Shown here: positions 1 through 3,197 of the stretch, in pieces | How the letters are laid out: each line of letters starts with the position of its first letter | Numbering within the stretch: the stretch's first letter is position 1 | Origin: Desulfobacterales bacterium | GTDB lineage: Bacteria > Desulfobacterota > Syntrophobacteria > B119-G9 | Direction of reading: 5' to 3' | Length of the DNA stretch: 25,721 nt | Assembly (NCBI GenBank): GCA_026992215.1 | Contig: JALXAI010000102.1 | Span: 1 to 25,721, forward strand | The notes under the pieces: generated by a model | What the model was told of the DNA's origin: nothing | Databases searched by the model: none | The model's input: only the letters and a program-made list of their open reading frames with translations | Position numbers and translations under genes: made by a program

Positions 1-1131
1 ACATACTCCTATTTTTCCGGCACAAACAGGATATCTCAAATAACCGGAGCCACATCCCTCAGCTTCAGCTACGACAGCAACGGAAACACCACCTCTATAG
101 GAACCAAAACCTTTACATACAATCAGAACAACCGCCTAATCAAGGTATCGGAAAATGGATCAACCCTTGGAGAATATACTTACAACGGCCTCGGCCAGAG
201 AACAATAAAAACCGTGGGAGGGAAAACAACTATCTTTCATTATGACCGGCTCGGAAACATTATCTCTGAGGAAACACAGGGAGAGGAACTAATAAGAGAC
301 TACATCTACATTGGTCGCACCCGCATAGCCATGGTAGAATCCAGAAGATGCCTCGCTGACATAGACACAGACCATGATGTGGACGGAGCTGATTTAGCGC
401 TCCTTGCGGATGATTATAATCGAACCGACTGCTCGGAAACCTCTCACTGCAGAGGTGACGTAAACGGCGACGGAGTAGTAAACACCGATGATCTAGGTAT
501 TTTAGCCTCTGAGTTCGGGAAAACATCGTGTCCTGATGATAAATTCTACTATTTCCACAACGACCATCTTGGTACTCCACAACGAATCACCGATCAAAAC
601 GGCACCATCGTCTGGTCCGCCAATTACAAGCCCTTCGGAGAAGCAACCGTCACCCTCAGCACCATCTCCAACCCCTTCCGCTTCCCGGGGCAGTATTTTG
701 ACAACGAGACAGGCCTGCACTATAATTACTTTAGGTACTATGAACCGGGAGTGGGGAGGTATTTGAGGCCGGATTTGATTGGGCTGAGTGGAGGAAAAAA
801 TCTTTTTGTCTATGTCCTAAATAATCCTGTTAATTTTGTTGATCCTTTGGGGCTGATAGATAATCCCATTGCAAACCTTCCATCTTTTACAGATGCCTTT
901 CCTAATTCCGATGTCGTAGCACCCGCCGCGGATATTATAGTTGGCGGTATAGAGGCTGGAGCTGCTATAGCCGCTGGAATTGCTGCAGGCGTTTCTTTCG
1001 TAGCAGGGCCTGAATTTTGGTGGATAACAGTACCGGCGGCACCTTTTAGTCTTGAAGCGGGAGTAGATTCATTCAGCAGAATAAAGGGGGGGATTGAAAG
1101 ATTTAACAGTCCCTCACCATGCGATAAATAA
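1..1131 (+). CDS. RHS/YD-repeat polymorphic toxin, C-terminal part (5' truncated by window), with dockerin-like insert and a 91-aa C-terminal toxin domain
   Basis: Frame 1 is open from base 1 (TYSYFSGTNRISQITG...YDSNGNTT...YTYNGLGQR), so the ORF starts upstream of the window. It carries YD repeats, the RHS core motifs YFHNDHLGTPQRITD and RFPGQYFDNETGLHYNYFRYY, and the cleavage motif NPVNFVDPLGL (ends at 855), followed by a divergent tail. Confidence 0.93.
   Translation, partial: TYSYFSGTNRISQITGATSLSFSYDSNGNTTSIGTKTFTYNQNNRLIKVSENGSTLGEYTYNGLGQRTIKTVGGKTTIFHYDRLGNIISEETQGEELIRDYIYIGRTRIAMVESRRCLADIDTDHDVDGADLALLADDYNRTDCSETSHCRGDVNGDGVVNTDDLGILASEFGKTSCPDDKFYYFHNDHLGTPQRITDQNGTIVWSANYKPFGEATVTLSTISNPFRFPGQYFDNETGLHYNYFRYYEPGVGRYLRPDLIGLSGGKNLFVYVLNNPVNFVDPLGLIDNPIANLPSFTDAFPNSDVVAPAADIIVGGIEAGAAIAAGIAAGVSFVAGPEFWWITVPAAPFSLEAGVDSFSRIKGGIERFNSPSPCDK
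349..534 (+). other. Dockerin-like (two EF-hand-like Ca2+ loops) domain inserted in the RHS core, copy 1
   Basis: DIDTDHDVDGADLALLA and GDVNGDGVVNTDDLGILA match the DxNxDGxVNxxD dockerin repeat. Four Cys bracket and link the repeats. The domain sits between RIAMV and YYFHNDHLGTP. Confidence 0.8.
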
Positions 1132-1142
1132 AAAAGGACATT

Positions 1143-1493
1143 ATGGATAAAGAAAAAATTTATAAAATAACATCTGTAGCTTCTAACTTCATTTTAGTTG
1201 TGGCTATCGTTTTTTTGAGTATTCATCTTATCGCCCCTTTGGTCGGTGGTAAGCTGCTTATCAATGCCTTGATACAATATGCAAGCTGGGCCAGTATAGC
1301 ATTGGTTATAAAAGTTGCCTTAAAGAGAGTTCAAGAAAAGCGTTCTATGAGGCTTCAAGAATACTCAATTATTTGCTTAATGGTCATTGTAAATTTGTGG
1401 ATATGGTTTACCTATCCACTTAATCTCATTCTTAGTATTTTGTGCGTTATATGTCTTGTTTTTTCTTATAAAATGCAGAGAAGCAAGGGATAG
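1143..1493 (+). CDS. Probable immunity protein for RHS toxin 1 (116 aa, about 4 TM helices)
   Basis: Starts 11 bp after the RHS stop with an AAGGA SD. The small, hydrophobic, AT-rich ORF occupies the canonical immunity position. Confidence 0.7.
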   Translation: MDKEKIYKITSVASNFILVVAIVFLSIHLIAPLVGGKLLINALIQYASWASIALVIKVALKRVQEKRSMRLQEYSIICLMVIVNLWIWFTYPLNLILSILCVICLVFSYKMQRSKG

Positions 1494-1705
1494 GTATCCT
1501 TTGAGAAAAACAAACATCTAATGATTTTGTCTTAACCGCTTTTCTTTTTTGGGGACGTGGGCGGGAATAGATAATCCAACCAGACGCCGCCACTCGCAAA
1601 GTTGCTCCCTGCCTGGCGTGAACACTTGCGGCTGATTATATAATCAGAATTATTGGATGTTGCCGCCGTGTACAGCGAGGTGGTAACAACGGAAATACAA
1701 CACTT

Positions 1706-2833
1706 ATGGGAAGCATGACTTTCACGTACAATCAAAGCAACCGCCTGATAAGGACGTCGCAGAGCGAATCGACTCTTCGAGAACACACATATAACGCTTT
1801 CGGTCAGAGATTCAAAAAGGTGGCTAACGGGAAAACAACTATCTTTCATTACGACCGGTTCGGAAACATTATCTCTGAGGAAACACCCGGGGAGGAAGTA
1901 ATAAGAGACTACATCTACATTGGTCGCAATCGCATCGCTATGGTTAAATCCAGAAGATGCCTGGCTGACATAGACACAGACCATGATGTGGACGGAGCTG
2001 ATTTAGCGCTCCTTGCGGATGATTATGATCGAACCGATTGTTCCGAAGCCTCTCCCTGCGTCGGTGACGTAAACGGCGACGGAGTAGTAAACACCGATGA
2101 TCTAGGTATTTTAGCCTCTGAGTTCGGAAGAACATTGTGTCCCGAGGACAAATTCTACTACTTCCATAATGATCACCTTAGTACTCCACAACGGGTCACC
2201 GATCAAAACGGCACCATCGTCTGGTCTGCCAATTATGTACCCTTCGGAGAAGCAACCGTCACCCACAACACCATCTCCAACCCTTTCCGCTTCCCTGGGC
2301 AGTATTTTGACAACGAGACAGGCCTGCACTACAACTACTTCAGGTACTATGATCCAGGAGTGGGGAGGTATTTGAGGCCGGATCCGCTTTTTTTCAAAAA
2401 ACTATCCGATAAGTACCAGTTCGCTCATAATAATCCAATCACTAGCTACGACTCAAAGGGTCTGATTGCTGCAACTATGACTGAATCACTGACATTGGCA
2501 ATTGAAACTACAGGAGTTACCCCTCTAGTTGTCCACCCTTCACTAGGATTGGCTGTTTTTATTGTATTATCTACTCCAAGTGAGACAGCAGGACCAGAAC
2601 TAGATATGCAGACTCCACCATACGATTCAAACCAACTAATCGCCTCAATAGAAGTACAGACTGGTCCGAGGGAGATGCCTGATTTGTCATACACACCAGA
2701 GAGTTGTAGACTTCGTTTTGAAGCCTGTAGAAGAGCGGCAAAAATAAAGTACCCTTGCCAGGCTAGAAAAAGAAATTGGGAAATTGTTAAATGTTGGATA
2801 GGATTCATCATGTGCTTAATAAGTAATCTGTAA
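1706..2833 (+). CDS. Orphan RHS module (core with dockerin-like insert plus a different 122-aa Cys-rich C-terminal toxin)
   Basis: Same RHS core motifs as gene 1, ending in NPITSYDSKGL (ends at 2464). It lacks the large N-terminal RHS body: there is an in-frame TGA at 1619-1621, and homology to gene 1 starts at about 1685 (NNGNTT). Confidence 0.88.
   Translation: MGSMTFTYNQSNRLIRTSQSESTLREHTYNAFGQRFKKVANGKTTIFHYDRFGNIISEETPGEEVIRDYIYIGRNRIAMVKSRRCLADIDTDHDVDGADLALLADDYDRTDCSEASPCVGDVNGDGVVNTDDLGILASEFGRTLCPEDKFYYFHNDHLSTPQRVTDQNGTIVWSANYVPFGEATVTHNTISNPFRFPGQYFDNETGLHYNYFRYYDPGVGRYLRPDPLFFKKLSDKYQFAHNNPITSYDSKGLIAATMTESLTLAIETTGVTPLVVHPSLGLAVFIVLSTPSETAGPELDMQTPPYDSNQLIASIEVQTGPREMPDLSYTPESCRLRFEACRRAAKIKYPCQARKRNWEIVKCWIGFIMCLISNL
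1958..2143 (+). other. Dockerin-like domain inserted in the RHS core, copy 2
   Basis: CLADIDTDHDVDGADLALLADDYDRTDCSEASPCVGDVNGDGVVNTDDLGILASEFGRTLCP; all four Cys are conserved with copy 1. Confidence 0.8.
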
Positions 2834-2852: not shown

Positions 2853-3197
2853 ATGAAGCGTTTGATATCTGAAATTAGAAGTAGCTGGCATCATGGTAAA
2901 GGAGAAAAGTACTCTAGGAAAGGTCAACAGGAGAAAGCACTTCAACATTTTCTGGAAGCATTAAATCAAGCACAAAAAACGGACAACGAAGGATCAATTG
3001 CCGTGGAGTTAGAATCTATAGGTGTCACGTATCTTAGGCTTGGGAAGTATGCTTTTGCCAAGAGATACTTATTCCAAGCCCTGAAGGTTTTTTCTGAATT
3101 ATCAAATCGAGAGGATAACAGCTACTTTTCCAGTCGAGTGGAAGAGATAAGAAAATTATTAGAACATTGCGATCACCACTTGTCGGTATCCGATTAA
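2853..3197 (+). CDS. Probable immunity protein for RHS toxin 2; TPR-like (114 aa)
   Basis: Lies 19 bp after the orphan toxin stop. Helical TPR-like pattern (G..YSRKGQQEKALQHFLEAL; IGVTYLRLGKYAFAKRYLFQAL). Confidence 0.7.
   Translation: MKRLISEIRSSWHHGKGEKYSRKGQQEKALQHFLEALNQAQKTDNEGSIAVELESIGVTYLRLGKYAFAKRYLFQALKVFSELSNREDNSYFSSRVEEIRKLLEHCDHHLSVSD

Follow-up and report, generated by a model that had tools for sequence, protein, structure and literature searches.

We analyzed a 25,721-nucleotide stretch of DNA (the window) from a Desulfobacterales bacterium, comprising the first 25.7 kb of contig C102 (JALXAI010000102.1) in a fragmented metagenome-assembled genome (MAG) of 599 contigs that is 84% complete (G000). 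The window opens with two RHS toxin genes, a main gene and an orphan cassette, each of which encodes a dockerin-family module inserted near the end of the RHS shell. The features of this region are:

1..1131, + strand: 3' part of the main RHS toxin gene (376 aa; P0001), cut by the contig start; RHS_repeat, PF03527, and TIGR03696 matches
343..546, + strand: dockerin-family insert, copy 1 (aa 115-182), with two calcium loops, two predicted helices, and four Cys; 110.5 bits with the insert hidden Markov model (HMM), Pfam Dockerin_1 over aa 119-169
547..855, + strand: PF03527 (aa 183-216) and TIGR03696 (aa 209-285) profile matches, with the DPLGL autoproteolysis motif at the end
856..1128, + strand: C-terminal toxin tip 1 (91 aa), Gly/Ala-rich and hydrophobic by sequence, without a family match
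1143..1493, + strand: candidate immunity gene 1 (116 aa, several hydrophobic segments), directly 3' of the toxin, without a Pfam family
1706..2833, + strand: orphan RHS cassette (375 aa; P0002), with DNA homology to the main gene over 1687-2383 (86% identity)
1952..2155, + strand: dockerin-family insert, copy 2 (aa 83-150); insert HMM 111.8 bits, Pfam Dockerin_1 14.3 bits
2156..2464, + strand: orphan PF03527 (aa 151-184) and TIGR03696 (aa 177-253) profile matches
2465..2830, + strand: C-terminal toxin tip 2 (122 aa), with no relationship to tip 1; divergence between the proteins begins after GRYLRPD
2853..3197, + strand: candidate immunity gene 2, assigned by position, encoding a 114-aa TPR protein (Pfam TPR)

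In both window RHS proteins, 69 residues separate RIAMV, the last YD strand, from FYYFHNDHLGTP. This confirms a preliminary description made from the sequence alone, which had noted in both copies a 62-aa block with two calcium-loop repeats and four Cys, spanning 349 to 2143; position 349 is where copy 1 has its first Cys codon, and 2143 comes shortly after the last of the four Cys in copy 2. The insert module itself is 68 aa long, lies between RIAMV and YYFHNDHLGTP, and contains two 12-residue loops, DIDTDHDVDGAD and DVNGDGVVNTDD, with D/N at positions 1, 3, 5, 9, and 12, in addition to the four Cys. It ends directly before PF03527 and ~27 residues upstream of TIGR03696. The earlier statement that it sits inside the RHS core therefore holds for the broad E. 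coli-type core (NF041261) but not for TIGR03696.

The Pfam Dockerin_1 model (PF00404; cut-off, 22.9 bits) scored copy 1 at 21.8 bits (22.8 bits for the excised piece; E 1e-4) and copy 2 at 14.3 bits, and its cut-off was exceeded by the homologous inserts of P0246 (a full-length protein from Desulfospira; 26.4 bits), P0128 (25.4 bits), and P0127 (23.1 bits). A profile built from 19 inserts plus the start of the RHS core (alignment A2) matched solved dockerins over full length (2y3n_B, E 6.4e-10; also 8x39, 4fl4_A, 2b59_B, and 1daq), and its core part matched the solved Rhs proteins 8qja, 8uxt, 8h8a, and 7q97. The calcium-ligand columns are conserved in A2, where ligands and Cys are kept among inserts just 46-50% identical, and the two F-hands of a dockerin are present. 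The insert is thus a genuine dockerin-family module with two F-hand calcium-binding-type loop-helix repeats, as the preliminary description had proposed. Given the Dockerin_1 score of copy 1 and the match of the A2 profile to solved dockerins, the resemblance is not due to chance. Dockerins bind cohesins in a calcium-dependent manner, and the insert is likewise predicted to bind calcium.

We modeled the longest same-genus copy, P0125, with AlphaFold2 over residues 120-1319, using a 93-row alignment (A1). The model had a mean predicted local distance difference test score (pLDDT) of 90.4 and a predicted template modeling score (pTM) of 0.84, and its shell matched solved Rhs cocoons at E 1e-60. 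Strands 1007-1015 and 1079-1087 flank the insert (residues 1015-1081; pLDDT, 82-88), and eight further strands come after it. The insert contains two 10-residue helices (1029-1038 and 1062-1071), both of which begin at position 10 of the respective calcium loop, as in F-hand geometry. Type I dockerins (2y3n_B, 1ohz_B, and 1daq) resemble the insert in having two 22-residue F-hand repeats, canonical calcium ligands, and helices from loop position 10; the insert differs from them in its four conserved Cys, which bracket the repeats, and in being internal to a beta-hairpin rather than terminal.

Among the 19 inserts of A2, Cys2 never varies, Cys3 reaches at least 90% conservation, and most rows have Cys1 and most have Cys4. 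Two inserts (P0127 and P0133) lack both Cys1 and Cys4 and retain Cys2 and Cys3, and index arithmetic on the model places Cys1 and Cys4 two residues beyond the strands that flank the insert. Because Cys1 and Cys4 are lost together, the putative disulfides are probably Cys1-Cys4, forming a staple at the base of the insert, and Cys2-Cys3 in the linker between the helices. Disulfides within each repeat (Cys1-Cys2 and Cys3-Cys4) were judged less likely in view of this joint loss and of the fact that the N and C termini of dockerins adjoin each other.

Both genes have the features of RHS polymorphic toxins, with matches to PF05593, PF03527 (59.9 bits), and TIGR03696 (93.9 bits), variable tips, and small downstream open reading frames (ORFs). 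Both RHS pieces also retain in translation the two Asp of the DP..GL / DPxGL autoproteolysis pair, which we take to be catalytic from the title of PDB entry 8uxt (D1369N, D1391N). The main and orphan genes share a 697-nt tract of 86% identity (78-774 versus 1687-2383) that contains the insert, and the two insert copies are 90% identical across the insert plus the beginning of the core. As the recombination tract common to orphan cassettes includes the module, each toxin swap would retain it, as the preliminary description had anticipated; orphans in a sister genome keep it too.

Several observations concern the toxin ends and the remaining RHS genes of this genome. Toxin tip 1, with its GGIEAGAAIAAGIAAG-type stretch, and the multi-transmembrane ORF at 1143-1493 resemble a membrane-active toxin and its membrane immunity protein. 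A TPR protein, such as that encoded 3' of the orphan cassette, is likewise found 3' of an insert-bearing RHS gene in Desulfospira. A third RHS 3' end (C461:11231-12646, - strand) has an ordinary short linker, no dockerin, and another toxin tip, and contig C190 carries a further orphan-like RHS core fragment. No full-length copy of the window gene was found, as all close copies end at contig ends; the longest is P0125 (1,448 aa, open at its 5' end).

The last shell hairpin as an insertion site

We measured the length of the same junction in 165 RHS homologues, a sample biased toward relatives of the query. The junction is shorter than 10 residues in 100 of these, in agreement with the earlier view that a short linker is normal here. 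It measures 60-79 residues in ~30, and those printed have the same two-loop module, while ~20 have 420-957 residues. In P0211, the junction holds four Golvesin_C domains (458 bits), and in P0149, ~950 aa of bMG3/CarboxypepD_reg/Big_1-type repeats stand between the RHS repeats and PF03527. Other junction inserts span 108-770 aa and include, in Nitrospirae MAGs (L059 and L072), TSP3 repeats together with a dockerin-like pair that lacks Cys. Carriers of such inserts include P0149, P0211, P0172, P0126, P0229, and P0234, and loci L036, L059, L072, and L092.

One solved Rhs protein encloses a cavity of ~25,000 cubic angstroms, and shells linked to type VI secretion systems (T6SS) are described as smooth and undecorated (bioRxiv 10.1101/2024.02.26.582050). 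Since junction inserts reach ~950 aa of folded domains, which exceeds this cavity, the large inserts would have to lie outside the cage, and by homology with them so would the dockerin. This is in line with the earlier proposal that the insert loops out of the shell. Were the insert instead to face the cavity, it might interact with or chaperone the encapsulated toxin, but inserts of 420-950 aa at the same junction are too large for that space, and the near-identical inserts in the window are paired with unrelated toxin tips, making an internal location very improbable. From these comparisons, the hairpin before YYxHxDHLGTP is well supported as a general, outward-facing port for the insertion of binding modules.

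The four-Cys module also occurs at the other end of RHS proteins: P0143, P0148, P0152, and P0183 carry it after the signal peptide and ahead of the shell, so it appears to have two alternative external positions. This bears on the possibility that the insert is a calcium-dependent folding latch without any partner, which would remain unfolded at the low calcium level of the cytoplasm, fold only after export, join the strands of the last hairpin, and let the plug and the aspartyl-protease site close the cage. A latch would suit the turn from wall to plug at which the insert sits, with eight more strands to follow in the model; dockerins reportedly fold upon calcium binding, a finding attributed to Lytle and colleagues in 2000 (cited in PMC13483458), and the paired Cys point to folding under oxidizing, extracytoplasmic conditions. 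However, Golvesin_C and Ig-like arrays, which are not calcium switches, occupy the same site, latching of the hairpin is impossible in the sister proteins with an N-terminal module, and most RHS proteins close without one. We therefore consider a latch unlikely.

Within the GTDB class of the window, the architecture is limited to the window's own genus (3 of 122 genomes and 1 of 31 genera), where at least six RHS copies of a sister genome (G001, 94% complete), mostly orphans, carry the insert. Beyond the class, it was found in another Desulfobacterales MAG (orphan L031), in an uncultured Desulfospira (full-length L032), and in Desulfobulbus elongatus DSM 2908 (fragment L033), and the Cys-less version extends to Nitrospirota. 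Among 1.84 billion cluster representatives (50% identity), ~25 of the best 150 matches span all or part of the insert together with the core, including the long proteins P0317, P0357, and P0373; the remaining matches are tandem arrays of the module. Some orphans (P0043, P0096, and P0104) start inside the dockerin.

Across seven copies, compared in non-independent pairs, the ratio of nonsynonymous to synonymous substitution rates (dN/dS) was ~0.3-0.4 in the insert, 0.12 in the core, and 0.26 in the preceding shell. Synonymous divergence (dS) of the insert (343-546 and the G001 copies) was 0.45, about half the 0.87 of the flanking shell and core, possibly through gene conversion or through codon constraint in the Asp-rich loops. 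If the module were a functionless passenger in a permissive loop, spread among cassettes by gene conversion, the many unrelated inserts accepted by the loop would be readily accommodated, and the low dS could reflect homogenization. Against such neutrality stand a dN/dS well under 1, calcium ligands and Cys that persist at 46-50% identity, and the presence of the architecture in distant lineages with diverged insert sequences, and we regard it as quite improbable.

The same Cys-bracketed F-hand repeat (C.GD.D.DG.VD..DL..FA..FGR.DC) also ends or begins other secreted proteins of this genome, on contigs C557, C86, C143, C553, and C411, including a metalloprotease-FN3 protein (C557) and a 2,150-aa giant. 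Metagenomic arrays of the repeat contain up to 17 matched stretches (P0296 and P0297), and P0305 has three single repeats in 133 aa. The occurrence of the module on many secreted proteins fits a shared docking tag. An alternative is target recognition, in which the dockerin would bind a prey receptor, glycan, or surface protein, in the manner of receptor-binding domains in other secreted polymorphic toxins, and would not anchor the cage to its producer. The other port inserts (Golvesin_C and macroglobulin/Ig-like arrays) do resemble adhesion or ligand-binding modules, and the insert is more variable than the core, both of which favor this reading. A docking tag, however, better accounts for the presence of the module on many unrelated secreted proteins (C557 protease-FN3, C86, and C143) and in metagenomic arrays, and target recognition seems to us as doubtful as the latch.

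Delivery and a candidate docking partner

The preliminary description had suggested a delivery route distinct from T6SS loading, and the full-length relatives bear this out. P0128 and P0246 are complete and consist of a signal-peptide-like hydrophobic N terminus, an unannotated N-domain (with TSP3-like calcium repeats in P0246), DUF6531, the shell, the dockerin, the core, and the toxin. Neither PAAR nor VgrG was found in P0125, P0127, P0128, P0133, P0246, P0317, or P0357, or in the four neighborhoods examined, which also had no Eag/DUF1795-type adaptor genes beside the insert-bearing RHS genes. The insert-bearing relatives thus do not have the makeup of T6SS Rhs effectors; the 5' end of the window gene lies beyond the contig start. 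Because the full-length relatives have signal peptides and neither PAAR nor VgrG, delivery of insert-bearing RHS cages looks T6SS independent, and we infer Sec export for the product of the window gene itself. A further pointer to secretion in this genome is a signal-peptide ORF on contig C290, just upstream of an RHS N-terminal fragment 70% identical to P0125. Large Beta_helix/NosD proteins (L032:2973-6104 and L106:15973-18405) adjoin two unrelated insert-bearing RHS genes, and the L032 protein has an RHS-repeat match at its N terminus.

We also asked whether the genome encodes a cohesin, the co-occurrence of which had been put forward earlier as a check. The Pfam Cohesin model finds nothing in this genome. 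The genome does encode P0247 (C73:3315-4040; L003:949-1671), a 241-aa protein with a signal peptide, an unannotated 155-aa beta-sandwich domain, and a Dockerin_1 match of 26.5 bits, and its language-model neighbors include small cohesin/dockerin proteins. With 49 homologues, P0247 folds at pLDDT 94.7, with a pTM of 0.87 for the whole two-domain protein, and the first 43 PDB matches of the model and most of the top 50 are cohesins (5lxv_C, E 4e-6; 4uyq_A, TM-score 0.61; 2xdh). As modeled, the N-domain of P0247 is a cohesin fold missed by Pfam Cohesin, and after this fold search we no longer took the Pfam result as evidence that cohesins are absent. The pTM also hints that the dockerin of P0247 may pack against its own cohesin domain.

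The P0247 family consists of ~240-aa secreted proteins, mostly from Desulfobacteraceae-type metagenomes, in which the predicted cohesin-fold domain is followed by a canonical dockerin. A profile of the P0247 cohesin domain matched only P0247 in its own genome. Among six insert-bearing genomes, cohesin-like genes were found in three: G000, G002 (weakly), and G041 (Desulfospira; above the Pfam cut-off, and with the P0247 family, A3). Glucodextran_B matches beside one insert-bearing RHS gene were followed as a cohesin-clan lead and dropped, as Pfam shows Ig-like Big_7-type domains there. With P0247, a cohesin-type module is predicted in the same genome as the RHS dockerin, and tethering of that dockerin to a cohesin is plausible.

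Together, these observations lead us to favor, as the probable though far from certain explanation, a model in which the dockerin sits in an outward shell hairpin of a Sec-exported RHS cage and docks the loaded cage to an extracytoplasmic partner. In this model, the dockerin is spliced into the tip of the last beta-hairpin of the shell, where the wall turns inward to the C-terminal plug. This tip would face outward and tolerate insertions, and a clade of RHS proteins would use it as a port for accessory modules. The cages would be exported by Sec and not as PAAR- or VgrG-loaded T6SS cargo. Outside the cytoplasm, the dockerin would dock the loaded cage in a calcium-dependent manner to a cohesin-like module, such as that of P0247 on C73, or to another surface ligand, and the docked cage would be held on the producer surface, a scaffold, or a target.

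A number of points weigh against this docking model. The window copies score at or below the Dockerin_1 cut-off (21.8 and 14.3 bits), and both the outward orientation and the disulfide pairing are drawn from sequence comparison. Our queries brought up neither the P0247 family nor other cohesin-like genes in G001, G042, or G043, three of the six insert-bearing genomes, and the dockerin of P0247, which has no Cys, differs from the RHS insert. The N terminus of the window gene is absent. At C290:5581-5922, the RHS N-terminal fragment that ends the contig is preceded by a typical signal-peptide ORF (MKRFYVLLLAFTFFLSAYG...) that reads in another frame and terminates at a stop codon; the frame break reflects a frameshift or else an error in MAG assembly, and the fragment cannot be tied to the window gene. 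A T6SS sheath gene, TssC/VipB (470 bits; C176:6063-6962), and a PAAR protein (C445:8124-8384) are encoded in the same genome, so that a T6SS coexists with the Sec-type RHS proteins. Finally, a ~1,500-aa cage would have to cross the outer membrane of a diderm.

A more speculative extension, which we put forward tentatively and consider unlikely, is a "toxosome." Here, the outward hairpin of the shell would be a general plug-in port, and the dockerin would dock loaded cages onto small secreted cohesin-dockerin adaptors that chain to scaffolds, giving anaerobic sediment bacteria a T6SS-independent, cellulosome-like surface display of interchangeable toxins.

Relation to known systems

The closest structural and sequence matches are T6SS-linked Rhs effectors (Pseudomonas protegens RhsA, 7q97; Acinetobacter baumannii Tse15, 8uxt; Salmonella bongori Rhs, 8qjc; and Vibrio parahaemolyticus RhsP, 8h8a). 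Common to these and the insert-bearing proteins are a YD-repeat cocoon, a DUF6531 N-terminal plug, the PF03527/TIGR03696 core, DPxGL autoproteolysis, an exchangeable C-terminal toxin paired with an immunity gene, and orphan cassettes. The T6SS effectors, however, have smooth, PAAR- or VgrG-linked shells, whereas here a dockerin occupies the last hairpin and the relatives have signal peptides and neither PAAR nor VgrG. Tc toxin BC cocoons (TcdB2-TccC3, 4o9x; YenB-YenC2, 4igl) are similar in being RHS cocoons with external decorations inserted in the shell and in their T6SS-independent secretion, but their decoration is a beta-propeller that docks to TcA, and by Pfam there is no TcA-like partner or propeller here.

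Dockerins and RHS sequences have been seen together before. Cohesin, dockerin, and Rhs occur in one polypeptide in the ScaO/ScaP-type scaffoldins (peptidase-Coh-Doc-...-RhsA) from Acetivibrio cellulolyticus and Clostridium alkalicellulosi, and the ScaP2 dockerin was shown to bind cohesins (PMC6780208, PMC3413522). In these Gram-positive cellulosome producers, the dockerin is separate from and N-terminal to Rhs, whereas here it interrupts the shell, in Desulfobacterales without a cellulosome. Dockerin and cohesin have also been named as trafficking modules of PT-TG toxins (PMC13483458); dockerin is not mentioned by Zhang et al. 2012.

Bacterial teneurin-like proteins (TLPs) are proposed to be surface displayed via N-terminal adhesion domains (PMC13018210), and signal-peptide-dependent YD-shell toxin cages in general, both TLPs and WapA-type, are thought to be displayed through adhesion or anchoring modules (PMC13018210; PMC12704120). 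TLPs and WapA-type proteins, however, carry their anchoring modules at the N terminus (S-layer, cell-wall, or lipoprotein anchors, or the TIP domain); none is reported in the shell hairpin, and none is a dockerin. We found no paper that places a dockerin at this RHS hairpin or recognizes an insertion port there, and our literature searches brought up only N-terminal or cellulosomal combinations. The suggestion that the architecture was undescribed therefore fails for RHS plus dockerin in one protein, which was already known, and stands for placement of the dockerin inside the shell, which appears to be undescribed.

Work on Rhs proteins has centered on smooth cages loaded by the T6SS, and the proteins described here point to a secreted clade in which one hairpin is repeatedly filled by binding modules. 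The analysis also brought to light a family of small proteins, with a predicted cohesin fold and a dockerin, that current Pfam models do not recognize as cohesins. A permissive site in the RHS shell could serve in the engineering of containers for displayed cargo. For the bacteria themselves, the docking model offers a testable hypothesis for how diderm anaerobes may hold or aim Sec-exported RHS toxins, and it would extend cohesin-dockerin biology to toxin delivery.

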